Assembly: GCA_903831305.1 (NCBI GenBank)
Contig: CAIKXE010000005.1
Location: forward strand, 11,288-75,287
Origin: an uncultured bacterium
Lineage (GTDB): Bacteria; Patescibacteriota; Minisyncoccia; Phycocordibacterales; GWA1-40-21
Direction: 5' to 3'
Length of the DNA: 64,000 nt
The notes under the pieces were generated by a model. That model had not been told where the DNA came from, ran no database searches, and saw only the letters and a list, made by a program, of their open reading frames with translations. How positions within the stretch are numbered: the stretch's first letter is position 1; each line of letters opens with the position of its first letter. This document shows, in pieces, positions 9,779 through 64,000 of this stretch. The position numbers and the translations under genes were made by a program.

Positions 9779-9782
9779 AATA

Positions 9783-10208: not shown

Positions 10209-10485
10209 AATTTTTTAATACTTCCCCGTTTTAATTGTAAATTTACACCTCGAGCGGAAAAGTATTTATCCTTTTACCTTTCAGAGACCACCATGACCCC
10301 TAATAAAGTAAAAATCAGAGCTCTCCTCTGACTTCCTATATACTAGCACTTTTTAGTTTTCTTGTCAAGCATTTAACACACAAAAATGACCTAGTCAAAC
10401 AACAAAATAGGCCTTAAAATAAGGCTTATTTCCTTGACAGGCCTTCAATAAAGTGGAGCAGAATATTAGCGGTTTTTACCCTAAA

Positions 10486-20229: not shown

Positions 20230-20232
20230 CCC

Positions 20233-20278
20233 TTATTCTCAATTAACCCATTCGTACGAATGGGTTAATTGAGAATAA
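20233..20278. promoter_or_regulatory. 46-bp perfect palindrome (copy 1 of the ACCCATTCG-nn-CGAATGGGT motif) immediately upstream of the HAD gene and downstream of the ArsR gene
   Basis: TTATTCTCAATTAACCCATTCG-TA-CGAATGGGTTAATTGAGAATAA is exactly self-complementary over 22+22 nt. Confidence 0.6.
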
Positions 20279-20577: not shown

Positions 20578-20617
20578 TCCCCTATTATACACCTATATAT
20601 ACAATTATCCTCTATTC

Positions 20618-20636
20618 ACCCATTCGCGCGAATGGT
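20618..20636. promoter_or_regulatory. Palindromic motif copy 2 (ACCCATTCG-CG-CGAATGGT), ~40 nt upstream of the ArsR start
   Basis: 8-bp arms around CGCG. Flanks TAT TCACCC...GGTTCCATAGAC are shared with copy 3. Confidence 0.5.
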
Positions 20637-20794
20637 TCCATAGACTGGGGGGAACAAAGGTGAGACCTTGAATCTCCAAAAAGGTCTCACCTTAAAGAGT
20701 AGTCGAAATATTTTTAATAAAAGGTACCTTGCTGTGCCCGCCCGAAGCCATGTGTCCAGCGAGACATTAGCGAAGGAGGGACACCTTTTTTGCC

Positions 20795-21838: not shown

Positions 21839-21994
21839 AAATTTAAATTAGTTAATAATGATTATATTATAAACCCATTTCCCCGAGGATTCAAACCATC
21901 CATCTATTTTTTAAAAGGTTCCTGACACCTTTTTCTCCTTTTTTCTAAAACCTATTCGCCTATTTTGGCGAATGCAGTCAATTTTTTCCTATTT

Positions 21995-22013
21995 ACCCAT
22001 TCGTACGAATGGT
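21995..22013. promoter_or_regulatory. Palindromic motif copy 3 (ACCCATTCG-TA-CGAATGGT)
   Basis: Same core and the same flanks (TATTTACCC...GGTTCCATAAAC) as copy 2. An adjacent second palindrome ATTCGCC-tatttt-GGCGAAT sits at 21954-21973. Confidence 0.5.
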
Positions 22014-22106
22014 TCCATAAACCGTACGAAGTCTTTGGGTCAGGAGTAGTATGATTCCGACGATTATGAGTATGAATAGGATGATTTGTATGGTTTTCAT
22101 ATTGAT

Positions 22107-22280
22107 TAATTTTTGCTTTTTTCTTCGCCAATTTCACCTTTTCGGGTATTCTTTTCGATTTTTTCTAGCAACTCCTCTATTCTATTTATTTTCCAATACC
22201 ACAGAATAATTTCACGAAAAATAAAAAATGCAAACCCAACAATACCTATTCCGATCAAAATCAAACCAATATTACTCATG
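22107..22280 (-). CDS. Small single-TM protein (57 aa), hypothetical; not in the ORF track (<60 aa)
   Basis: Minus-strand ORF MSNIGLILIGIGIVGFAFFIFREIILWYWKINRIEELLEKIEKNTRKGEIGEEKSKN. It is AT-rich and lies directly downstream of the GmrSD gene. Confidence 0.3.
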
Positions 22281-22293
22281 ATATTAAATTTTT

Positions 22294-22470
22294 TTATTTA
22301 AATAAATTAATAAAAGCCTGTTTATAATCTCCACTATACAGATTTTGATTAATATTTCCAATATAGTTGCCGGACCCTGAATTATTATAAATCTTATCTG
22401 TCATAAAAAAATAAATACCTATTGATATAATTAGAAATAATATTAAAATATAGAGCCGTGCATTCTTCAT
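22294..22470 (-). CDS. Small secreted/TM protein (58 aa), hypothetical
   Basis: Minus-strand ORF MKNARLYILILFLIISIGIYFFMTDKIYNNSGSGNYIGNINQNLYSGDYKQAFINLFK with a signal-anchor-like N-terminus. Confidence 0.3.
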   Translation of the reverse strand: MKNARLYILILFLIISIGIYFFMTDKIYNNSGSGNYIGNINQNLYSGDYKQAFINLFK

Positions 22471-22532
22471 AGGGATATTATATCAAGGTTTTTAAATATA
22501 CAAAAGAAGTAAAAATAAATACTTTTCATACA

Positions 22533-24278
22533 TTATATTTTCCAAGCATCATTATATGCTCTTTTTGCAAGTTTTTTTGTTCTTTCGTTTATATTTTTAA
22601 TTACTTCATCAGATGTTTTCATTTTTTCATTTTTCCACTCGTTAATTAAAACTTTGACCTCAGGAAGATTTTGAATTTCCATTTCCTTAAAAGTATCAAG
22701 TTTTTCTTTAATATTTTTATTTTGTTCTGAACCATTCGTATGTTTACTTATAACCAAAAGGTTCCCTATACTATCGATGTACTCTCCAACTTCATCCTCA
22801 TTAAAATTATAATTATCCATATTTTGAGATATAAGATGATCTATATCATAATTTCTCCTAAGAAGCTTTTTGTCTGAGTTATAAATCTCAATATATTGTC
22901 CTCCTTTTCTGTCGATATTATTTAGACGATCAAAAATATAATAAATTAGATTTGAATTCAAGCCATATGTAAGTTCGGAAAACTTTTCGACAAATTCCCC
23001 TTCTTTTACCAGTTTTTCATCTCTTAATTCTTTATTAATTTTTTCAATAAAACTAATAAAATTATTTTTATTTACCTTTTCCCTACATTTGTCTGCATAG
23101 TATTTTTCTATTTGGTTCCCAGGTCTTTGGCAAATTGCGTAATTAATAAAATGAAACTTTTCTAACATATAAATAAATTCTCGGAATTTTTTTGATAATT
23201 TTTCCTTTATGTCTTTGTCATTTGTTAAGTCAATAATAGTTAAGAGTTTAACGATAAGGGGATATGCCTGTGTTACACCAAATAGCTGGAGAGCATCTAG
23301 GCTTCGATTCAAGGTTTTTGCCTCATATTCCTTCCTAAAAAAGTCATTTTTACTTTCAACTGCCCACTCCAAAATTGATTCATATGAGCAGCTAACTATT
23401 ATAGAATAAAAATATGAAAAATCCTTCATCTCAGATAATAATTTACTTGCCCCAATGTTTTCGCCATACTTTTTAAGAAGTTTAAATAATAATTTTTTTT
23501 GTACAAGCCCAAAAATAGACACATAAAAGTATTTAATCATTCGAAGAACATTTCCAGAAGAGTTTTCAATAATAGTATTCCAGTCCTCTTCTGTCTTTTT
23601 GGAATTATTATTTTGGAATAAATAGTTTTTTAATAAATCAGCGGCGTTTAATTCCATACCTCTTGCATTTGTTCTTTCAAATATATCAAATGCATCTTGT
23701 GTATCCTCAATTTCTATTTTTACAAAGGTACTTTCATATAATTTTTTCAGTAGCTCAGACAAATCATCCTTATTAAATTTTGAAATGTGCTCAATAAAAA
23801 AATCATAGAGGGGTTTAATCCTGTTTGTTTGCCTTTGTTTATTTTTTAAGTTAAAGCTTTTTCCGTCCCAGTCGTGATTAGTAATTGTCTCATTAAAAAC
23901 TTCAATGATTGATGATGAGGGTATTAGTTTTGATGAACTAGCCTTACCTGAGGTATCATCTATGAAGGAAATCTTAGACTGAATAGCAGATGCTAAATCA
24001 TGAGAGTTTAGCTTTATTGCTTGATATCTACATGCGGCTAAAAAAATAAAAATGGTCGTTATTCTTTGTTGACCATCAACTATCGAGATTTCAGCCTCTT
24101 TCTCATTATTTACGTCTAGTACTATTGTGCCTAGGAATACAGGCTCTGAAGAAACATCATCCCAAAATTCCTCTATCTGATCCTTTTTCCATTCAAAGTT
24201 TCTCTGATATTCTGGGACAACATATTTAACACTTTCATCTAGTAAACTCCTAACTTTCTTTAATTCAGATTTAATCAT
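22533..24278 (-). CDS. GmrSD-family type IV (modification-dependent) restriction endonuclease: N-terminal DUF262 (ParB/Srx-like NTPase) + C-terminal DUF1524 (His-Me finger/HNH-like nuclease)
   Basis: DUF262 motifs YQRNFEW and IVDGQQR at the N-terminus. C-terminal DIDHLISQN...GNLLVISKHTNGSEQNK fits DUF1524. Very AT-rich (~27% GC). Confidence 0.75.
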   Translation of the reverse strand: MIKSELKKVRSLLDESVKYVVPEYQRNFEWKKDQIEEFWDDVSSEPVFLGTIVLDVNNEKEAEISIVDGQQRITTIFIFLAACRYQAIKLNSHDLASAIQSKISFIDDTSGKASSSKLIPSSSIIEVFNETITNHDWDGKSFNLKNKQRQTNRIKPLYDFFIEHISKFNKDDLSELLKKLYESTFVKIEIEDTQDAFDIFERTNARGMELNAADLLKNYLFQNNNSKKTEEDWNTIIENSSGNVLRMIKYFYVSIFGLVQKKLLFKLLKKYGENIGASKLLSEMKDFSYFYSIIVSCSYESILEWAVESKNDFFRKEYEAKTLNRSLDALQLFGVTQAYPLIVKLLTIIDLTNDKDIKEKLSKKFREFIYMLEKFHFINYAICQRPGNQIEKYYADKCREKVNKNNFISFIEKINKELRDEKLVKEGEFVEKFSELTYGLNSNLIYYIFDRLNNIDRKGGQYIEIYNSDKKLLRRNYDIDHLISQNMDNYNFNEDEVGEYIDSIGNLLVISKHTNGSEQNKNIKEKLDTFKEMEIQNLPEVKVLINEWKNEKMKTSDEVIKNINERTKKLAKRAYNDAWKI

Positions 24279-28534: not shown

Positions 28535-28700
28535 CAGCTATAAGGCCGGGTCAAAACCAGACTCAAAAAAATCAATTGTATTTTCTCCTGTCTCGATCCC
28601 TCAGACAATCAAAATTTGAATGTTTTTTATTACTGAGACAAAAGTAATCAAATTTTTCGGTCCTCGGGTCGCCATAGGCAGGGCTCAACCAGACACTCAA
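28535..28700. repeat. Two diverged copies of a ~60-nt element in the csoR-copA intergenic region
   Basis: TTTTTGGTCCTCGCGTC...CCGGCCTTGATCAGCTATAAGGCCGG...TCAAAACCAGACTCAAAA at 28535-28600 versus TTTTCGGTCCTCGGGTCGCC...GGCTCAACCAGACACTCAAAA at 28645-28700. There is also an inverted pair TACTGAGACAAAAG / CTTTTGTCTCAGTA. Confidence 0.5.
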
Positions 28701-28725
28701 AATTTAATTCTTTTGTCTCAGTATA

Positions 28726-41893: not shown

Positions 41894-44800
41894 TTAATAA
41901 ATCTCACCACGTAAACGACGCCAAATAAAGAAAACAAACCAGCCCAAAAATAAGAGCCCCGTAAAATCAATCACATACCACCATTTGCCTAAACCACTAT
42001 TCTCAATCACGACAAATGGAGCGCTCGGTGCCGGTGGATTTTCACTAGGAATAATAGTTACTTCATTTTTATTCTTAATAGGATTTGGCTCCACTGTTTC
42101 TCCTGTCCCTGGTATGACCTTGGCTGGTGTTTCAATATTCTTGGTTGGTGAAATAACATCGGTCCTAGGTACAGTGATTAATACTGGGGCCGGGGCCAAC
42201 GGTATATTTACCACTGGACTGACCGGTACCAAAACCGGCTGGTAACCACGACTACCAGTGGTGTTTGACACTCTAGTGACGGGCAAAGTAGCCGAGGTAT
42301 TATTGACTCCGCTTCGGCCCAAGGCGTTCACCGCACTAATCCTAAAATCATAACTCACATTATTTGTCAGCCCGGTTATAGTAACGGTAGTGACCACGGA
42401 CACCCCATCCGCAAAGATTGTCCACACCGCTGGTTCACTCGTCAGCTTATATTCAATCACATAATCCGTGATATCTAATCCCCCATCATCAGCTGGAGCC
42501 AGCCAAGACAAAACGACACTCGTATTCCCCGCCACCGCCGTTACGCCACTTGGGACATCCGGCACAGAAACCGGTGTCACCGAGTTTGAAGGTGGAGAGG
42601 AAGATAATCCGGTGCCGATAATATTAGTGGCGGTCATGGTGAAGGTATAGGCGGTGCCATTCGTCAGCCCGGTCACTACAATCGGCGTAGTCAGTCCGGT
42701 CCCCGTCAAACCGCCAGGGCTAGAAGTGACAGTATAATTGGTAATAGCGGTTCCACCATTGGAAGCGGGAGCGGTGAATGAAATTGTAGCCTCAGCATTA
42801 CCGGCCACGGCTGAGACCCCTGTTGGTGGATCCGGGAAGGTGGCCACGGCCGTAAAGGATGAAAAAGCATACGATGATTGCGAACCATACAAGACACTGA
42901 TATGAAAATAATATTCCCCCGGAGTCAGTACGGTAGAGGTAGCCGTAAAGTCATAATTTTCATGCGAATCAATAAGTTTGGCATTAGAAGCACCAAAAAC
43001 ATCATTCCCTCCTCCACACAGATTATCCACGGCATCCGTCACACACCAAGTATATTGATATTCATATTCCACCAAACCTTCATTGGTAATTCGAATATTT
43101 GTACCGATACTGGAGTTAGTCAAATCAGGAAAACCTTGAATAAAAACTTGGGCCGGTTCACCAGGCGTGGCACTGACCGAATCACTCACCGTACTAGTAC
43201 CAATAATATTTTTAGCACTGACCCGGAAATCATATGACGTACCGTTAGACAATCCGATCACATTGGCAAACTTATCCACGCTTTCTCCATCATCAAATGC
43301 CACCCAGCTACCGCCCGTCGTCAGCTCATACTCAATAACATAATCTGTAATAGCACTCCCGCCCGTGGAAGCCGGGTCAGACCAAGTCAAATCAATACGG
43401 CTACCTTTTACCACGGCAGCGAGATTAAGGGGGGCGCTAGGCGCCGTTGGCAAAGTGATAGCGGAGGAAGGATCAGAAGCCAGGCCGTCCCCCACATCAT
43501 TTACAGCTATCACGGTGAAAGTATAAGTGCCTCCATTGGTCAGACCAGTCATAATATGAGAAAGACCCGTTGAACTAGCATTAGAATCCGTCCCACCATT
43601 ATTGGAATAAACAGTATAGCCGGTAATGGCACTACCACCAGTGGATAAAGGCGCAGAGAAAGTTACCGTGGCCTGGGCATTACCCGCCACGGCCGTAACT
43701 CCGGTGGCCTTACCCGGCACGGTGGCTGGTGTCACGGGATTTGACGAAGTAGAAACCGGTCCATCACCAGCCACATTGGTCGCTTTCACCGTAAAAGTGT
43801 ACTCAGTACCATTGGTCAGTCCACTGATAATAATCGGCGAGGCACTACCAGTCTGAATAATTGCTTGTGGATCAGAGGTGACCGTATAGCCAGTGATTAT
43901 AGAACCACCGTCAGAAATAGGAGCCGTAAAACCAACCGTCACCTGACCATTGCCGCGTAAAACACTGGTGATGACCGGCTGACCGGGGACAGTCCTTGGC
44001 GTGCTACTTACGGGTGGATCACTTGGTGCTCCTGTCCCCGCGGAGTTATAGGCCGAAACTCGGAAGTCATATAGAGAACCATTTACCAGATCCACAACCG
44101 TAATTGTGATGGCTGGTGAGGCCGGATGACCAAACTGTGTCCAGCTTTCAGCTGTGTGCAGTTTATATTCAATAACATAATTACTAATTTCCGCCCCATT
44201 ATTGGCGGGGGCTGTCCAAGATAAATCTGCCGAGGCATTGCCTGGTGTGGCCGTAAGTCCAGAAGGGATTCCCGGCACTCCCGCCGGCGTCACCGGGCTC
44301 GAAGATACTGAGGTTTCCGAAGTACCCACCACATTGGTGGCCGTCATGGTAAAAGTATAGGGCGTGCCATTGGTCAAACCAGTCACAATGACCGGTGAAG
44401 TACTGCTTGAGCTGACAATTGATTCTGGGTCTGAGGTAACCGTATAATTGATAATTTCACTTCCCCCGTTTGTCGCCGAGTTACTTACATTCTCCTCCCC
44501 CGCCACTGCATAAAATGTCGCCGGTGAGCTTTGGTTATTATATTCGGTTTTAATCCAGTCCGCTGTACGGACAGTATTAGTTATGCGAACTTCATCGATA
44601 ATGCCGTCAAAATATCTCTCAAACGTTGCAACGTCTTGGACTCCGATTTCAAGCTTATGTGTGTGATCAGGAAGACTTCCTGAACGAGGTGTGGTGTCTA
44701 CTAATAGACCATTTTTATACAGACGTGCATTGGTACCATCATAGGTAACAACAAAATATGCTAAAACGTCTTGTGTGAGCTGACCAGCTACTGTAATCCC

Positions 44801-47800
44801 ATTTAAAACCGTGTCATCGACATCATAAACGATGCTCGTGCCAGAAGTTTGTAGCGTGTAGCCTCCGCTAGTACTGTATCCATTTTTTCCAACAATGGTG
44901 TCTCGATTAGACGCAGTGACATCATGTGGGCTTACCCAGGAGCCAAAAGTAAGCGCGGTTCCCGTGACCACTTCAGCATCACCAATGTCTATATATTTAC
45001 TGGATCCATTAAAACTCCCAGCCCCATTAATTTTTCCTGAGCTCGTTGCTGTTACTCCATGATTCGTTCCGTTATTTACACCCGTCGAATCAACCGAATT
45101 GGTCGGATCGGCCAAATGCCAAACACCTTTGAAATAACTACTACCACCATCATCCCACACTTTTTGTGAGCCGTAAGCCGAGCTTGGCGATGGCTCTGAA
45201 GTTGCCGAAGAGTTACCATAATACATATATATATCTGTATTGGCTGAAGTAGAAAGCACTGGCACTTTGACCCACGCCACCAGCGTGCCAGCTGAATATG
45301 ATTCTATTTCTCTAGCTAATTCTGTAGTGCCATTTGAATCCGTAAACCTAATATCGGTACCGTTAGCATTTATATTTGAGAGACCGGTGAGCGACACCAA
45401 AACCGGAAAATTTGTCTGATTAGTATTCGGCACCTTTGTCTTATCAATCGTAATCTTTTTTCGGTAAAGCCAAGCTTGGTTATACCACACCCCAGCAGAG
45501 GAAACGGTAGGATACGGCAGTGGTGTAAAATTCACTGTCACCTGCCGGTCACCACTTACCGCGCTAGTGATAACCGGCTTTCCGGGAATTGTTTTTGGTG
45601 TACTATTTACTAGTGGTGAACTGGGGCTTCCACTACCCACCGCATTTCTGGCCGTAATTCTAAAATCATAAGACGTACCATTGATTAATCCTGAAATTAC
45701 TGTGGCCGTAATCACGGGTGTCTCTGGGTCAGAATAAATCTGCCAGCTGGCCGGTATGTCAGAAGCGCTGGTAAGTTTGTATTCAATAATATAATCCGTA
45801 ATAGCACTGCCACCATTTGAGGCCGGTGCGGACCATAAAACAGACACTTGTCTATCTCCCGCCGTTGGTGTTACGGCTGTTGGCGCTCCAGGTACAGTGG
45901 CGGGTGTAACGCTGTTTGAAGCCGACGATGCTGGTCCCGTACCCATCACATTGGTGGCTGTCACCGTGAAAGTATAAGGGGTACCATTCGTCAGTCCAGT
46001 GACAATAATCGGTGAGGTGGTGCTGGCGCTGGTAAAACCCCCGGGGCTAGAAGTGACCGTATAAGCGGTAATCGCACTTCCCCCATTAGTGGCTGAATTT
46101 GCCACATTTTCTACTCCCGCCACCGCATAAAATGTCCCCGGCGAGCTTTGGTTATTGTATTCAGTTTTAATCCAATCCGCCGAGCGGGCGGTGTTAGATA
46201 TTTTCACTTCGTCGATGGAGCCATTGAAATAATATGAAGCAATACCTCCTATATTTAAATCAGAAGTAGTTCCTGAAAAATTACTTGCTCCGGATTTATT
46301 TGTCCATAAAACTCCATCAAGATAAATATTCATTGAATTATTTATAGAACTTGAAGTAAGAGTATAATAATGCCAGTTATTATCTGCGCAGTTTGAAGGA
46401 TTTGATTTAGATAATCTTCCATTAACAGCTGCATTACCAAAATCCCAATAAGTATTACCATTAGAATAACACGGATGAAAATTCATACGATTATTAAAAT
46501 TATCTGGATTAAGGATTAATGCAGCTTGTTGAGAAGTTTTATTCATCTTTAACCATATACCTATTGTTATTTCTGAAACTGGAGCAACATTTCCAAAGTT
46601 AGATATTTTAACATAATTCCCCGTTCCATTAAAACTCCCAGCCCCAGCGATTTGCCCTGAAGAAGTTGCTGTTACTCCATTATTCGTTCCATTATTCACT
46701 CCAGTGGAATCAGTACTTGTGGAAGCTCCCGCATTTGCCAAATGCCACACGCCTTTAAAATAATTACTCCCGCCATCATCCCAGACTTTTTGTGAACCAT
46801 AAGTCGAGCTGGGTGAAGGTTCTGAAGTTTGTGACGAGTTCCCATAATACATATAAATATCTGTATTGGCCGAAGTGGAAAGTGTAGGTACTTTTACCCA
46901 AGCCACCAGTGTACCCGCCGAATATGATTCTATTTCTCTAGCTAATTCTGTAGTTCCTGTTGAATCAGTAAATCTAATGTCTGTACCGTTAGCGTTTATA
47001 TTTGAGAGACCAGCGAGCGAGACCAAAACCGGGAAATTAGTTTGATTAGTATTCGGCACCTTTGTTTTATCTATTGTTATCTTCTTTCTATACGTCCAAC
47101 TATTGTTATACCACGGTGCAACGGAAGGGCTAGGTAGCAGGGTAAATGACACGCTAGCCTGCGCATTCCCCGCCGTCGCCGTACCAATAGTCGGCGCTCC
47201 CGGAATGGTGGCGGGTGTAGCCGTCACGGTGGCGCTCGCACTACCTTGACCAAGGGCGTTCACCGCGGACACACGGAAGTCATATGAAGTTCCATTGACC
47301 AAACCGATAATCGTAAAAGTGGTGGTGGTAGAAACCCCATCGGCATAAGTACTCCAGGTGGAAGTGGAATTTAATTTATAATCAATCACATAGTCCGTCA
47401 GTGCCAAGCCCCCGGTATTCCCCGGTGCCGTCCACAATAAACCTATTTGTGTATTCCCCGCCGTCGGCGTTAGTCCCGTCGGCGCATCCGGCACCGTCGC
47501 TGCTTCTTCTGTTGCGGATATCGCAAATGTCCCCGGCGAACTTTGATTATTGTATTCTGTCTTTATCCAATCCGCGGATCGGGCAACGCTAGAGATACGG
47601 GATTCATCAACTAGACCCAGAAAATCATAACCATTATTACTCGCGATTCTACCGATTCTTCTATAGTTATTTTTTAAATTTGCACTATTATAAGTTTCAC
47701 TTACTTTAATTACTCCATTAACGTAAAGTACGGAAGAATTTGAAGAATTATATGTCAGAACCACATGTGACCAACTACCTAATGTAGTAACTCCTGAACC

Positions 47801-48712
47801 ATAGTTCCTACCATAAAATCCTCCACCAATTGAATTTGAGGTCCCTACTTGTGCACCCTGAACTGTTCCAATATATGCCGATTGATTAGGTGATGAATCA
47901 CCAATAGATATAGCGCCAGAATATTTACTAACCGTAGCTGTATTAATCCATGCACTTAATGTAAACGAACTTGCACCAAGTATTGAATTGATTCCTGTGT
48001 CAATGTAATCCCCATCATTGGCAAAAGCAGCACCAGCAATTTGTCCTGACGAAGTTGCAGTTACACCATTATTCGTCCCATTGTTTCCATTACTTGTAGA
48101 ATCTGTGCTAGTTGAATTACCAGCATCAGACAAATGCCACACGCCTTTAAAATAATTACTTCCGCCATCGTCCCAAACCCCCGTAGCGACCGAGGTGGCG
48201 GGAGTGGAGGCCGAGGCGTTTCCATAATACATATAGATATCGGTGTCGGTCGTGGTAGCTAGTGAAGGTATCTTTACCCAAGACACCAGCTCACCAGTGG
48301 ATGACGCATATTTTTCTATCTCATAATTCAGGGCTGTCGTGCCATCAGCGGAAGTAAACAAAATATCCGCCCCGGTGCTCGTCCCCACATGCCCACCAGA
48401 AAATGAAGTGTATTTCAAAGCGGTGGTCGTCGTACTCACCAGCACCGGAAAATTAGTCAAAAGCGTCCCCGTAGAGCTAGCCACCTTAGTATGATCAATA
48501 GTAATTTTAGTTCGGTAACCCCATGCATCATTATACCAGCCAGTTTCCGCATACACCGTACTTATCTGCGTACCCAAAAAAGTAATTATAAGGAAAACAA
48601 ATACGCCACAAACTCTGTAAAGTCCTCTCTCCGCCACAGTCTTGTTTTTTTTATTAAAATTAAAAAACCAAACATGCATTACGGTTTTATTATACCATAT
48701 CTCCCCACCCAA
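41894..48712 (-). CDS. Giant (2272 aa) modular cell-surface protein: signal peptide, 3x [DUF2341-like beta-sandwich + LamG/concanavalin-like + tandem fibronectin type III], further FN3 repeats, C-terminal TM anchor
   Basis: The motif W..W.YRKKITID..KV...NFPVLVS occurs three times (DUF2341-like). DEVRISNTARSADWIKTEYNNQSSPGTF is a LamG-like jelly-roll C-terminus. There are many ~90-aa FN3-like repeats with conserved W, Y and TNG.SY.F.V.A.N positions. The C-terminus is LGWFVFFIWRRL. Confidence 0.8.
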   Translation of the reverse strand: MGGEIWYNKTVMHVWFFNFNKKNKTVAERGLYRVCGVFVFLIITFLGTQISTVYAETGWYNDAWGYRTKITIDHTKVASSTGTLLTNFPVLVSTTTTALKYTSFSGGHVGTSTGADILFTSADGTTALNYEIEKYASSTGELVSWVKIPSLATTTDTDIYMYYGNASASTPATSVATGVWDDGGSNYFKGVWHLSDAGNSTSTDSTSNGNNGTNNGVTATSSGQIAGAAFANDGDYIDTGINSILGASSFTLSAWINTATVSKYSGAISIGDSSPNQSAYIGTVQGAQVGTSNSIGGGFYGRNYGSGVTTLGSWSHVVLTYNSSNSSVLYVNGVIKVSETYNSANLKNNYRRIGRIASNNGYDFLGLVDESRISSVARSADWIKTEYNNQSSPGTFAISATEEAATVPDAPTGLTPTAGNTQIGLLWTAPGNTGGLALTDYVIDYKLNSTSTWSTYADGVSTTTTFTIIGLVNGTSYDFRVSAVNALGQGSASATVTATPATIPGAPTIGTATAGNAQASVSFTLLPSPSVAPWYNNSWTYRKKITIDKTKVPNTNQTNFPVLVSLAGLSNINANGTDIRFTDSTGTTELAREIESYSAGTLVAWVKVPTLSTSANTDIYMYYGNSSQTSEPSPSSTYGSQKVWDDGGSNYFKGVWHLANAGASTSTDSTGVNNGTNNGVTATSSGQIAGAGSFNGTGNYVKISNFGNVAPVSEITIGIWLKMNKTSQQAALILNPDNFNNRMNFHPCYSNGNTYWDFGNAAVNGRLSKSNPSNCADNNWHYYTLTSSSINNSMNIYLDGVLWTNKSGASNFSGTTSDLNIGGIASYYFNGSIDEVKISNTARSADWIKTEYNNQSSPGTFYAVAGVENVANSATNGGSAITAYTVTSSPGGFTSASTTSPIIVTGLTNGTPYTFTVTATNVMGTGPASSASNSVTPATVPGAPTAVTPTAGDRQVSVLWSAPASNGGSAITDYIIEYKLTSASDIPASWQIYSDPETPVITATVISGLINGTSYDFRITARNAVGSGSPSSPLVNSTPKTIPGKPVITSAVSGDRQVTVNFTPLPYPTVSSAGVWYNQAWLYRKKITIDKTKVPNTNQTNFPVLVSLTGLSNINANGTDIRFTDSNGTTELAREIESYSAGTLVAWVKVPVLSTSANTDIYMYYGNSSATSEPSPSSAYGSQKVWDDGGSSYFKGVWHLADPTNSVDSTGVNNGTNHGVTATSSGKINGAGSFNGSSKYIDIGDAEVVTGTALTFGSWVSPHDVTASNRDTIVGKNGYSTSGGYTLQTSGTSIVYDVDDTVLNGITVAGQLTQDVLAYFVVTYDGTNARLYKNGLLVDTTPRSGSLPDHTHKLEIGVQDVATFERYFDGIIDEVRITNTVRTADWIKTEYNNQSSPATFYAVAGEENVSNSATNGGSEIINYTVTSDPESIVSSSSTSPVIVTGLTNGTPYTFTMTATNVVGTSETSVSSSPVTPAGVPGIPSGLTATPGNASADLSWTAPANNGAEISNYVIEYKLHTAESWTQFGHPASPAITITVVDLVNGSLYDFRVSAYNSAGTGAPSDPPVSSTPRTVPGQPVITSVLRGNGQVTVGFTAPISDGGSIITGYTVTSDPQAIIQTGSASPIIISGLTNGTEYTFTVKATNVAGDGPVSTSSNPVTPATVPGKATGVTAVAGNAQATVTFSAPLSTGGSAITGYTVYSNNGGTDSNASSTGLSHIMTGLTNGGTYTFTVIAVNDVGDGLASDPSSAITLPTAPSAPLNLAAVVKGSRIDLTWSDPASTGGSAITDYVIEYELTTGGSWVAFDDGESVDKFANVIGLSNGTSYDFRVSAKNIIGTSTVSDSVSATPGEPAQVFIQGFPDLTNSSIGTNIRITNEGLVEYEYQYTWCVTDAVDNLCGGGNDVFGASNAKLIDSHENYDFTATSTVLTPGEYYFHISVLYGSQSSYAFSSFTAVATFPDPPTGVSAVAGNAEATISFTAPASNGGTAITNYTVTSSPGGLTGTGLTTPIVVTGLTNGTAYTFTMTATNIIGTGLSSSPPSNSVTPVSVPDVPSGVTAVAGNTSVVLSWLAPADDGGLDITDYVIEYKLTSEPAVWTIFADGVSVVTTVTITGLTNNVSYDFRISAVNALGRSGVNNTSATLPVTRVSNTTGSRGYQPVLVPVSPVVNIPLAPAPVLITVPRTDVISPTKNIETPAKVIPGTGETVEPNPIKNKNEVTIIPSENPPAPSAPFVVIENSGLGKWWYVIDFTGLLFLGWFVFFIWRRLRGEIY

Positions 48713-48849: not shown

Positions 48850-49055
48850 CTGATTAATTAATACCAATTGATATCAATTAATATCAATTGGTAATAATTG
48901 GTATTAATCAATTACATTATCTCTCTGTACACTCACGGACGGCCGTCAACGAGTGTACAGCAATGATAAATACCCAAAATAAACTTTTCTATCAATTACA
49001 TTATTTCTCTATACACATCTGAACGGCCGTCAACAAGTGTACACCAGTTTAATTA
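48850..49055. repeat. Cluster of palindromic/direct repeats 3' of the wHTH-Cas2-like gene
   Basis: Near-palindrome TACCAATTGATATCAATTAATATCAATTGGTA. Two ~60-nt direct copies ATCAATTACATTAT(C/T)TCTCT(G/A)TACAC...(C/T)GAACGGCCGTCAAC(G/A)AGTGTACA(G/C)CA sit at 48905-48965 and 48992-49052. A related site GGACGGCCGTCCACAATTGTACAG lies 5' of the gene at 49567-49592. Confidence 0.6.
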
Positions 49056-57154: not shown

Positions 57155-57470
57155 TCGGGTTGAAACATGAGTACATTTCTCGAAGCTTACAGCTTCAGTA
57201 CAGGTTTCCCAAAATTTTGAAATATGAATTTCTAAATTTTATGGGAGAACCTTTTCGAGTCCAACACGTAAGCAGGTAATCCTGCTTACTCCGGCAACAA
57301 AAAAATTGCCTTTCAGCAATTTCTTTTGTGCGGAGTACTGGATAATGTTAGAACTGAGTTGATGAAAAGCAAGGTAATTCCGCATATACCTAATCTATCT
57401 AAATGGGCTCAGAAACAAGGGTTAAATTACCCTACACCACCAAGCACTATATAATCTAGTCTAACTGATT
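57150..57470. repeat. Copy 1 of a repeated structured non-coding element (~320 nt)
   Basis: Shares four ordered conserved blocks with 60693-61293 (AACATGAGTACATTTCTCG..TTACAG; TTCGAGTCCAAC.ACG.AAGCA; GTGCGGAGTACTGGA..ATGTTAGAACTGA; TTACCC.ACACC). Hairpins have compensatory changes. No ORF. Confidence 0.6.
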
Positions 57471-58031
57471 CTATAAGCCAATAATCCCCCTTGCCACCCA
57501 CCCAACAACTAATATACCTACTCCATTAGCGATGAATGATATTAGTAAAAACGTTTTGTCTTTTATTTTTGATAAACCAAGCATCGCCACACCAATCTCA
57601 TCTGGAAAAGGAGAAGCAATAATTAAAGCGGCAATAAACGGAGTAAAGAATATAAATAAACGTGTTTTAAATATAGCAAAAAAACGCTTTGTTTTTTGAA
57701 AGGAAAGTAAGTAATTAATATCCTCTGAAATTCTATCTTTAACAAAACGAAAAATAATATAATCCCCCAAGGCAGCGCCTAAACCACCAATAATAGCTAC
57801 CATAATAAGTGGGGTTGTTTGTACCAAAACTCCAATTAACACAATAGCTGGAGCGGTGGTAAAGAAAGAAGTAAAAAACATTCCAGCAATAAGTATCGTC
57901 AGCCAACTTAAGCCATCAAAGGAATAAATAAATCTCTCAATTATTCCAGTTCTTAATGCTACAAGGGCAATACCAATACTTATTAGTAGGAATATAATGT
58001 CCTGGAATAATTGTTTTTTATTATTTTTCAT
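57471..58031 (-). CDS. DedA/TVP38-like small integral membrane protein
   Basis: 186 aa, 4-5 TM helices, with a GAALGDYIIFRFVKDR motif reminiscent of the DedA family. Confidence 0.4.
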   Translation of the reverse strand: MKNNKKQLFQDIIFLLISIGIALVALRTGIIERFIYSFDGLSWLTILIAGMFFTSFFTTAPAIVLIGVLVQTTPLIMVAIIGGLGAALGDYIIFRFVKDRISEDINYLLSFQKTKRFFAIFKTRLFIFFTPFIAALIIASPFPDEIGVAMLGLSKIKDKTFLLISFIANGVGILVVGWVARGIIGL

Positions 58032-58040
58032 TGTTCAATT

Positions 58041-60692
58041 TTATATTTTATTTTGTTTTCTTTTTATAATAATAAATTTGACTGTTTCCATCATAGCAAG
58101 ACAAATAAAACCAACTAAAATAACAGCCACTAACCAAAGTAAGGATAGTGAAACTGTAGACAGTAGTCTCTGTAGCACTGGAATATAAATTGCCATGATC
58201 ATTAATACTATACCAAGAAAAGAACTAATGTTTGTGAATATATTAGAGAAAGGATTATATTCCCAAATACTTTTATCCAGGCTCCTGACGGAGAATATAA
58301 GCATAAGGGTATAAATACCAAAAGATGCAAAAATAAATGTTCTTAATAAATCTTCATTTATTCCCAATTTAAACAAAACATAGTATAAAACAAATAGAAT
58401 TACGCTTGTCATAACTCCAACACCCCAAACCAATAATTTCATACTGCTGTCAAAAATTGAAGCACGGCTAATTTTTCCACGTAAATTTTTTCCATCTTCC
58501 TTTTCATCTTCGTAGGAAAGAGATATCGCTGGTAAACTGTCTGTAATAAAATTTACCCAAAGTATTTGAGCTGCCGTTAGAGGCATAGGTATACCTAATA
58601 TTATAGCCCCACCGATTAAAAGAATCTCATCAAAGAGAGATAGTAGACAAAATACCAAAACCTTTTTAATGTTTTGAAGGATTTTTCTTCCCTCATCTAT
58701 AGCTGAAACAATAGTATTAAAGCTATCATCTAATAATACTAAATCGGAGGCTTCTCGAGCAACTTCTGACCCAGAACCTATAGCAATACCGACGTCAGCC
58801 TGTTTTAAAGCCGGAGCATCATTTACCCCATCACCAGTCATTGCTACTATATAGCCCAGATCCTGAAACATTTTAGTGATTCTAACTTTAGACTGTGGAT
58901 TAATTCTAGAGAATATTTTGATATTACCTAGTCTTGATTTTAATTCTTCATCATCCAACAAATCTAATTCGTGTTGTTCAAGTACAGAATCACTGTCAAT
59001 CTTCATCCCTAATCCCTGAGCTACAGATATAGCTGTGCCAGTATGATCTCCAGTAATAATCACCGTTTTTATTCCATCATCATCTATTTCTTTGATAACC
59101 CCGCCAACATCCTTTCTAACTGGATCTTTAAGTAGAATATTTCCAAGATATTCAAGACCTACTATTGTGTCAATTTTTTTAAAGTCTATTTTTTTATTGG
59201 TTGACGTAACGGCTATTATTCTATAACCAGCGGTGGCATTTTTATGAATATTTTGTAAAATACTTCTCTTTTCATCTTCAGTCATCACTTTTTTACCATT
59301 CCAGTAAAAGGAACTGCACATTCCAATAACGATTTCGGGTGCTCCAATTAGTAATATTCTTTCTTCTCCACCCTCCATAATTCTAACAGCCGAAAATTTA
59401 TTTTTAGAATTAAAGGGTAATTTTTCAATAATTGGTGTATTTTTTCTCAGTTCAAACTCTTTAAGCCCAAAGTTTTCTGCCGCCTCTCTTACTAAGGAGG
59501 TATCCATTGGCTTACCCACAATCTTCCAATCTCTTATTGGGCTGTCAGGATTTTCCACCTGCGCGTCAGTACATAATATTGCATACTTTAATATTGTATT
59601 TTTATAGTCTGTTTCAAATGCAGTATTATCCATAAACGGGATATCAACCCCGACCAAACTCATATTACCCTCAGTTAGAGTACCTGTTTTGTCCGTGAGA
59701 ATTATTGAAGTATCACCCAGTGTTTCAGCAGAAAGTAATTTTCTAACAACTCCTTTTCTTTTTGCTAACTTTTCCACCCCCACAGCCAAGATAACAGTTA
59801 TTGCTATAGTTAAACCTTCAGGAATAGCTGCCACAACCACCGCTACAGACATCATAAACATTTCAAAAACTGAGTAATTATAGTATAAACCTAAAATAAA
59901 AATTGATATTGAAATAATCAATACCCCCCAAGTCAATTTTTTAGAAAAAACATCGATTTTTTTTTGAAGTGGCGTAGCCTCGTCGGTAATACTTGTTAAG
60001 AAGGTAGAAATAATACCAAATTCTGTGCTGGTGCCGGTTGAGGTGATAATGGCCGAACCCAGTCCGTCAGCTATTAGCGTCCCAGAAAATATCATAGATT
60101 TTCTATCACCTAATGAGGACTTTAATTTTGTTTCTCTGGTGTTTTTTTCCACCGGTAAAGATTCCCCAGTCAAAACCGATTCATCAATAATAAGGTTATT
60201 GGAATGAATTATCCTTCCATCAGCTGGGATTTTATCACCACTAGAAAAGTTAATAATATCTCCGGGCACCAATTCCTCTATAAGAATTTCTTTTATGTGG
60301 CCGTTCCGTAAAACTCTAGTTTTCTTTTGCAAGTAATTACTTAGACCACTCAATGCATTCTCGGCTTTATTTTCTTGATAAAAACCAAGAAAAGTATTAA
60401 TCACCACAGCTATGAATATAAAGATAGCGTCATTATAGTCCCTTAAAAATACGGTTGTCACTCCAGCAATAGCTAAGATATAAATTAGAGGACTCTTAAA
60501 TTGCCTCAGAAAAATTTTTAATTTAACAAAGTGTTTCTCTGAAATAATTTTATTTTCTCCAAAAATACTTCTTCTTTCTAAAACATCAGCGTCAGACAGG
60601 CCAGAAGTGGAGGATTTAAGAATCGCAATAGAATCCTCAATTGATATTGTCCAGAATGGTTCTTTTATAGTATTTTCATTTATTTGTGACAT
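58041..60692 (-). CDS. P2-type cation-transporting ATPase (Ca2+/Mg2+ PMCA/SERCA-like); start at internal Met (MSQINENTIKEPFW). The ORF-track 5' extension to 60932 lies inside the repeated element.
   Basis: DKTGTLTEG, TGDHTGTAISVA, GDGVNDAPALKQADVGIAIG, ten TM helices, and an N-terminal cation-ATPase N domain. Confidence 0.85.
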   Translation of the reverse strand: MSQINENTIKEPFWTISIEDSIAILKSSTSGLSDADVLERRSIFGENKIISEKHFVKLKIFLRQFKSPLIYILAIAGVTTVFLRDYNDAIFIFIAVVINTFLGFYQENKAENALSGLSNYLQKKTRVLRNGHIKEILIEELVPGDIINFSSGDKIPADGRIIHSNNLIIDESVLTGESLPVEKNTRETKLKSSLGDRKSMIFSGTLIADGLGSAIITSTGTSTEFGIISTFLTSITDEATPLQKKIDVFSKKLTWGVLIISISIFILGLYYNYSVFEMFMMSVAVVVAAIPEGLTIAITVILAVGVEKLAKRKGVVRKLLSAETLGDTSIILTDKTGTLTEGNMSLVGVDIPFMDNTAFETDYKNTILKYAILCTDAQVENPDSPIRDWKIVGKPMDTSLVREAAENFGLKEFELRKNTPIIEKLPFNSKNKFSAVRIMEGGEERILLIGAPEIVIGMCSSFYWNGKKVMTEDEKRSILQNIHKNATAGYRIIAVTSTNKKIDFKKIDTIVGLEYLGNILLKDPVRKDVGGVIKEIDDDGIKTVIITGDHTGTAISVAQGLGMKIDSDSVLEQHELDLLDDEELKSRLGNIKIFSRINPQSKVRITKMFQDLGYIVAMTGDGVNDAPALKQADVGIAIGSGSEVAREASDLVLLDDSFNTIVSAIDEGRKILQNIKKVLVFCLLSLFDEILLIGGAIILGIPMPLTAAQILWVNFITDSLPAISLSYEDEKEDGKNLRGKISRASIFDSSMKLLVWGVGVMTSVILFVLYYVLFKLGINEDLLRTFIFASFGIYTLMLIFSVRSLDKSIWEYNPFSNIFTNISSFLGIVLMIMAIYIPVLQRLLSTVSLSLLWLVAVILVGFICLAMMETVKFIIIKRKQNKI

Positions 60693-61293
60693 ACAATATA
60701 AGTATATCACTATTTTTCTAATAATATCAGGTTTCAGAGTCCATTTCCTAGCAAAAACATAACCATGTTTTGCAAGGTTAAAATTTTTGTGTGTCGGGTG
60801 AGTATTGGGGTGAGACCCAATATGCAAGACTTCGAGTATTTTATAGTCAAAAAGCGAGAAGTGTACAGATCCTGTAAGGATGGAACATGAGTACATTTCT
60901 CGGTTCTTACAGAACCAGTATCCCTTTCCCATTTACTCACAATATGAATTGCTCGTAAATATGAGAGAAGGGCTTCGAGTCCAACCACGCAAGCAATTCA
61001 GATTGCTTGCTCGGCGCACATAATTGTCAAGCAATTTGTGGTCACCCATAATTTTTTGCTGAAAATTTGCGCTACCCCGACTCGCGCCGCCGCGCTACGT
61101 CTCGCACACAGTAAAAGAAAAACACCTAAAAAGTAATAGGTGCTTTTCATATATTTACTGTGTGCGGAGTACTGGACGATGTTAGAACTGAACTAATGAA
61201 AAATAAAGTGATTCCGTATATACCCAACCTACTATTATGGTTTGAAAAACAAAAGTTAATTTACCCCACACCCTAGGACACTATATATTTTAA
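60693..61293. repeat. Copy 2 (longer, ~600 nt) of the repeated structured non-coding element, directly 5' of the P-type ATPase
   Basis: Same conserved blocks in the same order as copy 1. It also has a ~100-nt insertion with the hairpin TATTGGGGT-gag-ACCCAATA, and a GC-rich insertion (gcgctaccccgactcgcgccgccgcgctacg) bounded by the hairpin CACACAGTAAA...TTTACTGTGTG. Confidence 0.6.
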
Positions 61294-62523
61294 CTAAACC
61301 AAGGGATACTTCCCTTCTAATAAATTAGCTGTTACTAGTTTTAAATTACCAAGAATATTTTTTGCTGTTTCCTCAGCTTTTATCATATCAATTTTTTCTG
61401 TTGTATTTATTACAACTACCCAAGGATCTTCCAGTGGTCTGTCTATCTGACTAGAAATATATACTTCGCAAGGCACCTTTTGTTCTTCCCAAATCTTATT
61501 GGCAATATCTAACGCTGCAACAGAATAAATTTTACCTGCATGATATGAAGGATTCTTTCCACTTAAACCCTCTACACTGAACGGTCGTCTAGAAGATATT
61601 ACACCACCAAGCCTATTACCTCTACTAACCTGCCCTTCATCACCAGATTCAATACAAGAACCTGTTAATCTTAAATATAGCATCTCTTTATCAGTGTTAT
61701 CTCCTGGATTTAATGTAATTCTAACTTCCTTAAAATTATACTTTTCTTTTATTAGATCATTCACAATTTTAAGTGTAGTCTGATAATTATCTTTATACTC
61801 ATCAACAGAGTTTACACGTGAAGATAGTTGTGGAATTGAAATTGTTAAATCAACTTCATCTTTATGTCTAAAACCCATTATTTTACAATCAGCACCCATC
61901 CAAGGATACTTAATCCAGGCATCATCTGACGTTAACATTTGTTCAATATCTAAAATCATTTGTTCTAGTTTCGTAAAAGGCGCCCACCCACAACCTACAG
62001 CTGTATCATTAGATATTGGCCTAGTAGCTTCTGGTAGGTCTTTTATAGATCTTGGATGAAATCTGTTATGAATAGCAGAATTACCTTTATTTTCATTATC
62101 AATCATACCCCTGGTACTATTTGAAGTAACCTCCCACATAACCCTACAATCAGTTGAGAACCTAAAATTTCTAAGTTCTTTTTCTAAGAAATCAGAAGCG
62201 GTTTTAATTAACAATTCCTTAACATCTATTATTTCGTCACCAAACTTTGAAGTAACCCTACCATTAATAAGAAGCCGGACCGGTTCCTTAAAATTACCCC
62301 CGCCAAAACGAACATCGCACTTACCACCCATCAATGAAAGTTTATCGAACTGATGCCTTAAAACTACACCGTACTTATTTAGTGTATGTTTACTATATGT
62401 TCTTGAAAGTAATTCCGCCAAATGGTCAGATAGAGTGTCTGGGTGACCTCTACCTTTTCTTTCAGTAATTTCAAAATCACATACTCCAACACCTATTAAT
62501 TCTTTTGTTATGTTTATTTTCAT
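61294..62523 (-). CDS. Archaeal-type S-adenosylmethionine synthetase (MAT; PF01941 family)
   Basis: ITERKGRGHPDTLSDHLAELLS and HQFDKLSLMGG...FGGGNFKEPVRLLINGRVT match the archaeal MAT signature (ERKGxGHPDxxCD; FGGG). ~400 aa. It is not the bacterial MetK fold signature. Confidence 0.75.
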   Translation of the reverse strand: MKINITKELIGVGVCDFEITERKGRGHPDTLSDHLAELLSRTYSKHTLNKYGVVLRHQFDKLSLMGGKCDVRFGGGNFKEPVRLLINGRVTSKFGDEIIDVKELLIKTASDFLEKELRNFRFSTDCRVMWEVTSNSTRGMIDNENKGNSAIHNRFHPRSIKDLPEATRPISNDTAVGCGWAPFTKLEQMILDIEQMLTSDDAWIKYPWMGADCKIMGFRHKDEVDLTISIPQLSSRVNSVDEYKDNYQTTLKIVNDLIKEKYNFKEVRITLNPGDNTDKEMLYLRLTGSCIESGDEGQVSRGNRLGGVISSRRPFSVEGLSGKNPSYHAGKIYSVAALDIANKIWEEQKVPCEVYISSQIDRPLEDPWVVVINTTEKIDMIKAEETAKNILGNLKLVTANLLEGKYPLV

Positions 62524-63557
62524 ATTTTAATTAATTTAGACCTTTCAGATTCTACTAAATCAAGAACTATTATCTTCTGTTTATCGGTAATTTGCTTTTG
62601 TTTTGTATCTGAATCAGATATAAAAACCCTTTTTTCTTTTAGGTCCTTTGAGTATAAGTCGGAAACCTTTAAGACATTCCCTTTCTCCTCCTTAGATAGC
62701 TCAATATTCCATAATACTCTAATTATATCAAAAAAATCTGTCTTTATTTTGCAATAATCCAAAAATCTTGTTTGACTAGAATGATATTTTCTAGCATTAA
62801 TACAAAATATCCCCAATAACCTAGAGCAGAATTCTGATAAAGACATATTAATTATTTGATCTGAATCAATGTTTAGTATACCAGAAAAATAATTTGAATA
62901 TAATTTTTTACTTCTAAGCCAACCGGGTGGCCTTTCTATAACTGAGGCTAATACTTCTATGCCGTTTCTATGAATAAATAACCAGGGAACCTTCTCATAA
63001 CAATCTGGAATTAAATTTATAAATAAAATGTTCCAGCTTCGGAACTTAATAATAGTCTTTTTTGAAGTTATAGGTGCACAGGAATCAAGAACACCAAAAC
63101 ACGTCTTCAACAAAGACTTTTTAGTATCTGGATCTATATTTACTGCAGGATCTAAAATAGCATTAATAATAGTAGGTTCTGATAACACAAAAAAATTATC
63201 TGAGACTCCGAGCATCTGTGTAAATAATGTAGAACCACATCTAGACATATGAAAAATAAAACCTAATCTTTCCGCTAGTCTAGGATTCAGCAAATATTCC
63301 TTATACTGATTAATGAAATCCTTAATCGGAGTGTATACGACATTATTATCTGCTTCGTCGAAATATAGCGGCCTAGACAATAATTCATCCTCTCCTGGTA
63401 ATTTTACCTGTGATTCTAATATATTAAATTTTTTCACTAACGAATCAATAAAGAATGGTTCCTTAAAATAACTTCTAGAAAGTTTAAAAGAAACAACATT
63501 AATTACAGAATTAACTTCCCTTAAGGTAACCGGTAATTCTATAATGTCATCTCTCAT
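62520..63557 (-). CDS. Sulfotransferase-fold protein (PAPS-binding-like P-loop), hypothetical
   Basis: 5'-PSB-like FIFHMSRCGSTLFTQMLG and 3'-PB-like LFIHRNGIEVLASV motifs. Overlaps the MAT gene by 4 nt (translational coupling). Confidence 0.45.
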   Translation of the reverse strand: MRDDIIELPVTLREVNSVINVVSFKLSRSYFKEPFFIDSLVKKFNILESQVKLPGEDELLSRPLYFDEADNNVVYTPIKDFINQYKEYLLNPRLAERLGFIFHMSRCGSTLFTQMLGVSDNFFVLSEPTIINAILDPAVNIDPDTKKSLLKTCFGVLDSCAPITSKKTIIKFRSWNILFINLIPDCYEKVPWLFIHRNGIEVLASVIERPPGWLRSKKLYSNYFSGILNIDSDQIINMSLSEFCSRLLGIFCINARKYHSSQTRFLDYCKIKTDFFDIIRVLWNIELSKEEKGNVLKVSDLYSKDLKEKRVFISDSDTKQKQITDKQKIIVLDLVESERSKLIKI

Positions 63558-63559
63558 AT

Positions 63560-63964
63560 TTATTTTTTATTAATAATTTCCAGTAAATTTGCTTTTAAAA
63601 AAATATCAGGGAGTTTGAGCTGGTCCTGCAAACCCAAAGATCGAGCTATTCCATTTATAATTCTGACAAAATTGATACCTCGTTTAAGGTATTCCTTATC
63701 ATCTGAAGTCAAATTAATATTTTTTGAAATCTTTTCACTCAACCCTTTTATGATTTGAAATATTGGTTCCGGCGAATTTGGTAAAGCATCTACCAATAAA
63801 AAATCCCAAACTCCATTTTCTTGTGAAAATAAAACATTATCTTCTCCAGCTAAAGCTAAAATTTGTCCGGTTCTCTCAGCATATTCAATTGCGTTTTTTA
63901 CAAAAAGTTCTAATTGTTCCCTAAGTTGATTATCAGTTTCAGCCATTGTTATCAGATTAGACAA
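63560..63964 (-). CDS. Hypothetical protein (first gene of the MAT cassette)
   Basis: 134-aa ORF 2 nt upstream of the sulfotransferase-like gene; no recognised motifs. Confidence 0.35.
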   Translation of the reverse strand: MSNLITMAETDNQLREQLELFVKNAIEYAERTGQILALAGEDNVLFSQENGVWDFLLVDALPNSPEPIFQIIKGLSEKISKNINLTSDDKEYLKRGINFVRIINGIARSLGLQDQLKLPDIFLKANLLEIINKK

Positions 63965-64000
63965 TGATTTATTCCTTGAACAATCTTGAAGATCAAGGAA

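Follow-up and report, generated by a model that had tools for sequence, protein, structure and literature searches.

What does a bacterium do with a methionine adenosyltransferase (MAT) of archaeal type whose gene overlaps that of a sulfotransferase-fold protein (ST)? The question is raised by one end of a 64,000-nucleotide stretch of DNA from an uncultured member of the Patescibacteriota (Minisyncoccia; Phycocordibacterales; GWA1-40-21; contig CAIKXE010000005.1, positions 11,288 to 75,287), hereafter called the window. The synthetases of S-adenosylmethionine (SAM) are mostly regarded as housekeeping enzymes present in a single copy; the archaeal-type branch described here is a distinct one that has spread among bacteria, locked to an ST and with a changed pocket. 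The analysis presented below makes it very likely that the ST-MAT pair is a functional module, and the cassette in the window represents a minimal form of it; the module as a whole is conserved, has been transferred laterally and has this pair as its fixed core. The best reading of its role, which we hold tentatively and not quite at an even chance, is a laterally mobile pathway dedicated to a small molecule that is sulfated and derives from SAM or adenosine.

The original prediction, made from the letters of the window, proposed a specialised role for the two genes, and neighbour conservation was set beforehand as a point on which that proposal could fail. On this point the proposal held: the pair was recovered from both sides. 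A genome scan with the ST alignment gave 80 loci, among which close orthologues were defined by at least 33% identity over the full length. A MAT gene was present within 1.2 kb in 13 of 14 close orthologues (counting L001, a longer public contig that carries the cassette of the window), and the single exception lies near a contig end. The hosts of these orthologues are labelled Parcubacteria, Taylorbacteria, Zambryskiibacteria, Paceibacterota, 'Saccharibacteria', Ferruginibacter (assembly JBDSAA01), Allosphingosinicella (JBJMTX01) and Verrucomicrobiales. No MAT was found beside the 66 distant ST homologues, whose similarity is confined to the catalytic domain (25-31% identity). When metagenomes were scanned with the MAT alignment, 51 loci were obtained, 36 of them with an ST; for the near-full-length MATs of the clade described below, an ST was present in the fetched DNA of 36 out of 38, and one of the exceptions is a MAT at a contig start. 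The 4-nt overlap of the two genes recurs in 7 loci, and contig sizes coincide repeatedly among the protein-database homologues of ST, MAT and the 346-aa protein encoded upstream of them. Carriers of the pair are mostly Patescibacteria and extend to Bacteroidota, Alphaproteobacteria and Verrucomicrobiota, a spread that contradicts an adjacency inherited vertically within one lineage; one or more of the carriers are in culture, among them Parasediminibacterium sp. JCM 36343. Literature searches on the combination of ST with archaeal MAT, on PF01941 and on metK in the candidate phyla radiation (CPR) returned nothing relevant and no description of the pair. The parts come from known families; what is new is a small-molecule tailoring operon, as we read it, with its own SAM synthetase.

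The MAT gene (61294-62523, minus strand; 409 aa) is the last gene of the operon. Its archaeal affiliation, proposed at the outset from the motifs ERKGRGHPD and FGGG...GRVT, holds: both motifs are present, and residues 16-404 match PF01941 (AdoMet_Synthase) with an E-value of 9.8e-93 (311.6 bits, cut-off 27). The best match in the PDB is the Thermococcus kodakarensis enzyme (TkMAT, 4l4q; full length, E 2.4e-67), the MATs of that database scoring between 1e-65 and 2e-67. All five NCBIfam equivalog models placed the protein below their cut-offs, the best score being 321 bits against the 481 required (NF003362). In TkMAT, SAM is held by the catalytic His33, by Tyr271, which stacks on the adenine, and by Asp201 and Asp283, which bind the ribose hydroxyls; the methionine carboxylate is bound by His62, Asn64 and Asn161, and Asp144 and Leu145 are located on a flexible loop (PMC3853416). 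The window MAT keeps His33, Asn161, Asp201, Tyr271 and Asp283 (as His27, Asn172, Asp212, Tyr283 and Asp295, respectively), residues that are conserved in every MAT examined. It has Arg56 and Gln58 at the positions of the carboxylate ligands His62 and Asn64. This exchange follows the linkage to ST: positions 62-64 (TkMAT numbering) read Arg-His-Gln in all 38 MATs of the ST-linked clade, and His-His-Asn in every other MAT examined, whether unlinked metagenomic, plasmid-borne, archaeal-like or TkMAT itself. The 38 Arg-His-Gln proteins formed one clade in a neighbour-joining tree (distances only), the non-CPR members being placed near its base. Around the flexible loop, these proteins have some 20 residues more than the archaeal enzymes and carry an F-x-P-R-x3-D-L-x-E motif, both features being shared with sister clades. 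As judged from these alignments, the ST-linked MATs are a distinct monophyletic branch with a clade-specific change in the predicted substrate pocket.

These observations bear on the explanation that the MAT is the housekeeping SAM synthetase of Patescibacteria and the ST is merely carried along by synteny. The pair has been kept in four phyla despite rearrangement of every other gene, and it is also present in free-living Alphaproteobacteria and Bacteroidota, bacteria that are expected to have MetK. The recurrent translational coupling and a substrate-site signature exclusive to the ST-linked clade argue in the same direction, as does the location of the cassette, a low-GC island that also contains phage-like genes and genes of replication (described below; module GC is below that of the flanks in 19 of 21 loci). 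A housekeeping role would agree with the predominance of Patescibacteria among carriers, with the absence of any bacterial metK from the 64-kb window and with the full set of intact catalytic residues; overall, we consider it quite improbable. At the other extreme, the ST-linked MAT might not be an ordinary SAM synthetase but an adenosyltransferase with a remodelled amino-acid pocket (Arg/Gln plus the extended gate loop), which would accept another nucleophile or a modified methionine, and the operon would lead to a hitherto unknown class of sulfated adenosyl (sulfonium or ether) metabolite or cofactor. We regard this idea as unlikely; if it is true, many Patescibacteria would make such a compound, and soil bacteria would take part in its exchange.

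The ST gene (62520-63557, minus strand; 345 aa) overlaps the MAT gene by 4 nt, as had been noted from the sequence; the junction reads ATATGA, with the ATGA shared. The ST itself had no direct sequence match in Pfam (E <= 0.1), NCBIfam, PHROG or the PDB. Its family comprises about 510 homologues, and 42 of 52 aligned members matched PF13469 (Sulfotransfer_3), with a best E-value of 3.9e-9. An AlphaFold (AF2) model computed from that alignment had a pLDDT of 93 and a pTM of 0.92. When this model was compared with the PDB by Foldseek, the top 44 matches were all sulfotransferases dependent on 3'-phosphoadenosine 5'-phosphosulfate (PAPS), with probabilities of 0.94-1.0 and TM-scores of 0.3-0.56; Stf9 (2z6v, E 6.6e-5) came first, and SULT1E1, TPST1/2 and the sulfotransferase domains of CurM and OLS were among the others. 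H103, R106-C-G-S-T-L111, E127, K171, R173, R197 and S205 are invariant in the family alignment, and the motifs HMSRCGSTLF and IHRNGIEVLAS quoted in the original prediction are both present. We take RCGST to be the 5'-phosphosulfate loop of sulfotransferases, R197-x7-S205, by its spacing, to be the 3'-phosphate motif, and E127, 21 residues past the loop Arg, to occupy the position of the catalytic Glu of TPST2, equivalences drawn from motif and spacing rather than from superposition. The N-terminal domain of the ST (residues 1-98) is confined to the subfamily linked to MAT. The model and the alignment allow us to assign with confidence a predicted sulfotransferase fold with intact PAPS-binding motifs, in agreement with the initial proposal.

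The gene layout differs from the one first proposed, a trio headed by a 134-aa hypothetical protein. The listed 134-aa open reading frame (ORF; 63560-63964) stays open up to base 64000, the edge of the window, and its TTG start at 63964 is, like the ORF itself, an artefact of that edge. L001 is identical to the window (no mismatch over 11,481 nt) and contains the full gene at 8958-9998, which encodes 346 aa; the window holds only its C-terminal 146 codons (63560-64000, minus strand), the gene start lying beyond position 64000. Two nucleotides upstream of this gene in L001, outside the window, lies a gene missed by the original prediction, which encodes a 218-aa His_Phos_1 protein (E 2.6e-30). 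Because the 346-aa frame is open at the edge and His_Phos_1 is found upstream in L001, the cassette is a four-gene operon cut by the window: His-phosphatase, 346-aa protein, ST and MAT, with junctions of 2, 2 and -4 nt. About 150 nt downstream of the MAT stop, a consensus scan detected, by pattern match only, a terminator-like hairpin followed by a T-run (61117-61148, minus strand), which probably marks the end of the operon.

The 346-aa protein had no significant sequence match in Pfam, NCBIfam, PHROG or the PDB. Its AF2 model had a pLDDT of 90.6, and the top 50 Foldseek matches in the PDB were all kinase-like folds (APH, Mph and protein kinases), aminoglycoside and macrolide phosphotransferases leading; the scores were weak (best E 3.2e-3, TM about 0.2). 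An exhaustive profile search defined a large uncharacterised family of 568 representative clusters, of which a few members weakly matched PF10707 (YrbL); in an alignment of 38 diverse members, G31, K48, N255 and D271 do not vary. With moderate confidence, the modelled protein is described here as kinase-like. Matches of its profile to PPR proteins were dismissed as compositional (zero qualifying stretches), and paralogy between the 345-aa ST and the 346-aa protein was rejected, the BLASTP alignment being a 35-residue match at chance level.

Relatives carry fuller versions of the operon. Unbiased clustering of the neighbouring ORFs identified as recurrent partners His_Phos proteins (22 loci; CobC/PGM-like, below cut-offs), a protein of about 165 aa designated C2 (21 loci; often a tandem pair, no family assigned), a zinc deaminase closest to guanosine, deoxycytidine and TadA deaminases (19 loci), kinases for adenosine 5'-phosphosulfate (APS) together with glycerol-1-phosphate-dehydrogenase-like (G1PDH-like) proteins (19 loci), and the 346-aa kinase-like protein (12 loci), which occupies the same slot as C2 and never occurs with it. 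A NUDIX protein was a further partner. A candidate assignment of C2 as HAD-like was rejected: the motif was seen by eye only, and no significant Pfam or PDB match was obtained. The APS kinase occurs in three forms: stand-alone (144 bits, above the cut-off), fused to an NMN-adenylyltransferase (NMNAT)-like domain, and adjoining or fused with the G1PDH-like gene. One type of gene order is APS kinase, G1PDH-like, His_Phos, 346-aa protein or C2, ST, deaminase, MAT; another is C2, G1PDH-like, ST, deaminase, MAT, NMNAT-APS kinase fusion, His_Phos. High-GC variants outside the CPR have the order ST, MAT, a P-loop protein (C10), C8, a TPR protein and APS kinase. As predicted from their families, the recurrent partners act on nucleosides, nucleotides or polyol phosphates (TadA/guanosine-deaminase-like, His_Phos, NUDIX and G1PDH-like proteins).

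This set of partners also bears on the possibility that the ST sulfates a macromolecule (a protein, a peptide, a surface glycan or RNA), the MAT supplying SAM for a methylation encoded elsewhere. Tyrosylprotein sulfotransferases are among the best structural matches of the ST, TPR and P-loop kinase-like proteins are partners in the high-GC variants, and a UvrD-like helicase adjoins the module in 8 loci. In the closest relative of the window, a gene that weakly resembles methyltransferases separates the ST gene from that of the kinase-like protein. The conserved module contains no gene for a precursor peptide, a glycosyltransferase or export, however, the recurrent partners are the nucleoside, nucleotide and polyol-phosphate enzymes listed above, and the altered methionine site of the MAT is left unexplained. 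We consider macromolecule modification unlikely, and prefer the small-molecule pathway.

In the small-molecule pathway, the MAT would join ATP to methionine or a close analogue, giving an adenosyl-sulfonium compound (SAM or SAM-like). The co-translated ST, with PAPS as donor, would then sulfate a hydroxyl of this product or of a metabolite derived from it, and the kinase-like protein and the His-phosphatase would add phosphate to an intermediate and remove it. Alternatively, the phosphatase may recycle the by-product 3'-phosphoadenosine 5'-phosphate by removing its 3'-phosphate. What the analysis shows is the operon structure, the folds, the pairing and the clade-specific change in the MAT; what we infer is PAPS as the donor, a SAM- or adenosine-related small molecule as the acceptor, and the parts played by the kinase-like protein and the phosphatase. 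PAPS agrees with the ST motifs and with the APS kinases co-encoded in relatives.

Several points weigh against this proposal. There is no APS kinase in the window cassette and no sulfate-activation gene in the 64-kb window. As the module lacks a conserved methyltransferase or radical-SAM gene, adjacency is the only ground for supposing that SAM is used. The ST stays below Pfam thresholds and its structural matches have modest TM-scores (0.3-0.56), and the kinase-like assignment of the 346-aa protein rests on weak fold matches. The Arg/Gln pair could still hold the methionine carboxylate, as Gln/Lys does in bacterial MetK (PMC3853416), and the MAT might be the sole SAM synthetase in streamlined CPR hosts.

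Is the cassette a resident of this chromosome? Most of the window is ordinary chromosome, encoding aminoacyl-tRNA synthetases, ribosomal proteins, MurG/FtsW, SMC/ScpAB and an F-ATP synthase operon. The nearest named homologues suggest that the host probably belongs to the Patescibacteria, in agreement with its lineage. The low GC content reported for the cassette was borne out (31.7%, compared with 41.9% for positions 1-57000 of the window). It belongs to a low-GC island that covers 57471-64000 and at least 9.5 kb beyond the window (29-35% GC, compared with about 42% for the host); the island, at least 16 kb long, ends at the atp operon and also encodes a P-type ATPase and a VTT protein. Its upstream part in L001 (1-8298) encodes a DnaB_C helicase, DUF5681 and a HEPN protein, with an overlapping gene of 152 aa after the last of these; a 509-aa island protein in L001 combines RNAP-alpha-CTD, DnaA_C and sigma-r4 helix-turn-helix domains, and a 684-aa protein is also encoded in the island. 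No integrase was seen in the available DNA, and the island resembles a mobile element that has integrated beside the atp operon. Lateral transfer of the module is deduced from its low GC together with its cross-phylum distribution.

Such a setting would be compatible with anti-phage cargo, and a counter to phage enzymes that deplete SAM had been part of the original prediction. The module would then restore SAM after attack by a phage SAM lyase, or make a toxic nucleotide analogue. The DnaB_C, DUF5681 and HEPN genes around the window copy, the helicase genes that flank the module in several loci and a weak resemblance of the deaminase partner to anti-phage dCTP deaminases are compatible with defence or counter-defence. 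PADLOC gave no match for ST, MAT, the kinase-like protein, His_Phos, C2, C8 or C10; its helicase matches are generic superfamily 1 enzymes and its deaminase match is weak. The phage collections INPHARED and IMG/VR contained no relative of the MAT, IMG/VR only two distant relatives of the ST, and in most loci the module lies in ordinary chromosomal contexts. We therefore consider a defence role very improbable: of the specialised roles first proposed, the sulfated or SAM-derived small molecule stands as the best reading, with the APS kinases of relatives in its favour, and the counter to SAM depletion does not. A phage origin of the genes was also rejected: the nucleotide search of phages was empty, tblastn of the MAT against phages was empty, and IMG/VR yielded no MAT, only the two ST relatives already mentioned.

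The cassette abuts, as stated in the original prediction, the second copy of a repeated intergenic element (60878-61292, minus strand), which starts 2 nt after the MAT stop. Related copies are found at 57158-57458 and, outside the window, at 8100-8198 of L001, just upstream of the His_Phos gene. The three copies share 74-85% identity and a nearly invariant 45-nt block, and they bracket the four-gene cassette and the P-type ATPase/VTT block, the last copy preceding the atp operon. Each copy starts at most 13 nt from the preceding stop codon and has a terminator-like hairpin after it. A comparison with Rfam identified no family, only chance matches to microRNA and snoRNA hairpins, and a consensus fold of the three copies showed no convincing covariation. 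Possible roles of the repeat are that of a common leader or promoter and that of a site marking cassette boundaries. The neighbouring P-type (Ca/Mg-type) ATPase ORF (58041-60932, minus strand) is 963 aa long when called mechanically and runs into repeat copy 2; its true start is probably near 60827 or later, since the protein is annotated as 928 or 951 aa long by gene callers in identical contigs.

Other repeats were observed elsewhere in the window. A 50-nt inverted repeat (98% complementary) has its arms at 18687-18736 and 28653-28702, 9.9 kb apart; the segment that it encloses falls to 27.8% GC at 22001-24000, contains a GmrSD_N-type gene (22533-24278) and copper-ATPase/HMA genes, and may be transposed or invertible. 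Near the low-GC GmrSD segment, a 44-nt palindromic repeat with the core CCCATTCG..CGAATGG occurs three times in intergenic positions (20230-20273, 20602-20645 and 21979-22022). A 2272-aa ORF (41894-48712, minus strand) with internal repeats of about 1.6 kb (DUF2341, Laminin_G_3 and fn3 domains) probably encodes a giant surface protein, and a pair of 56-nt direct repeats lies just upstream of it (48907-49046).

A sulfated SAM- or adenosine-derived molecule, if the pair makes one, would represent new sulfur and nucleoside biochemistry and would offer one of the few functional entries into the reduced metabolism of Patescibacteria. The module is directly testable, because it is compact (two to eight genes, the eight-gene version being that of loci such as L103 and L108) and present in the cultured Parasediminibacterium sp. 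JCM 36343.

How does this module compare with known systems? NodH with NodPQ and RaxST with RaxPQ are self-contained sulfation modules whose targets are a lipo-chitooligosaccharide or a peptide, and which have no MAT. They likewise place a Sulfotransfer_3-type enzyme beside genes for PAPS supply, as do the many relatives of the window cassette that have an APS kinase in the operon; here, in contrast, the invariant partner is a MAT, and the window copy is devoid of APS kinase. Compared with small-molecule kinases (APH(2''), APH(9), macrolide phosphotransferases and YrbL), the only fold class matched by its model, the 346-aa protein has retained the Gly-loop and the beta3 Lys, as well as the Asn of the catalytic loop and the Asp that binds Mg; it differs by an atypical catalytic-loop motif (G-x-D-N), and the matches are weak (E >= 3e-3).

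The archaeal MATs (TkMAT 4L4Q, SsMAT 4HPV, PfMAT 6S83 and MjMAT) belong to the same family, PF01941, with about 34% identity over the full length, and share with the window MAT the catalytic His, the two Asp residues that bind ribose, the Tyr that stacks on adenine, and Asn161. The window enzyme differs from them by its bacterial host, by Arg/Gln in place of His62/Asn64, by its longer loop with a conserved F-x-P-R-x3-D-L-P-E motif, by its low equivalog scores and by its constant ST partner.

The closest parallels are accessory archaeal-type MATs of other bacteria. A tblastn search found MAT homologues in 43 plasmid records, at 31-38% identity. The MAT of Bacillus thuringiensis pCT127 (9001-10242 of locus L141) has as neighbours genes for a non-ribosomal peptide synthetase (NRPS), a glycosyltransferase, a Gfo/Idh/MocA oxidoreductase, a shikimate-dehydrogenase-like protein, a TIM-barrel protein, an MFS transporter and a nucleotide-sugar dehydrogenase, a set that fits the published composition of the thuringiensin (thu) cluster. 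The thuringiensin cluster must join the ribose of adenosine to glucose via a '4,5' bond, 'from ATP/ADP/AMP' (PMC4147579); we read this bond as involving ribose C5', and the pCT127 MAT, instead of making SAM, may be responsible for the attachment of adenosine C5' to glucose. At otherwise invariant positions, it carries the substitutions E280D, D283E, R292K and H316F (TkMAT numbering). The plasmid MATs of Streptomyces and Ca. Megaera lie among genes for sugar isomerases, oxidoreductases, NUDIX proteins, a carbamoyltransferase, a PGM-like phosphatase and a bisphosphate nucleotidase. Two ST-less metagenomic MATs (L126, 4872-7182; L127, 3035-6262) have His-His-Asn and are encoded directly downstream of myo-inositol-1-phosphate-synthase-like genes, a radical-SAM/SPASM gene also being present near the MAT in L127; these loci represent another small conserved MAT-containing cluster. 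The plasmid and ST-less metagenomic MATs are all of the His-His-Asn type, and all lack an ST. The pCT127, Streptomyces and Ca. Megaera enzymes thus differ from the ST-linked MATs in these two features and in their partners, which are Gfo/Idh/MocA oxidoreductases, sugar isomerases, glycosyltransferases and NRPS. They have in common with them the extended-loop motif and a position in sister clades of the tree, and they sit in sugar and nucleoside tailoring sets, on replicons of bacteria with a metK of their own. Because these sister clades are found in small-molecule clusters, archaeal-type MATs recur in bacteria as enzymes dedicated to a pathway.

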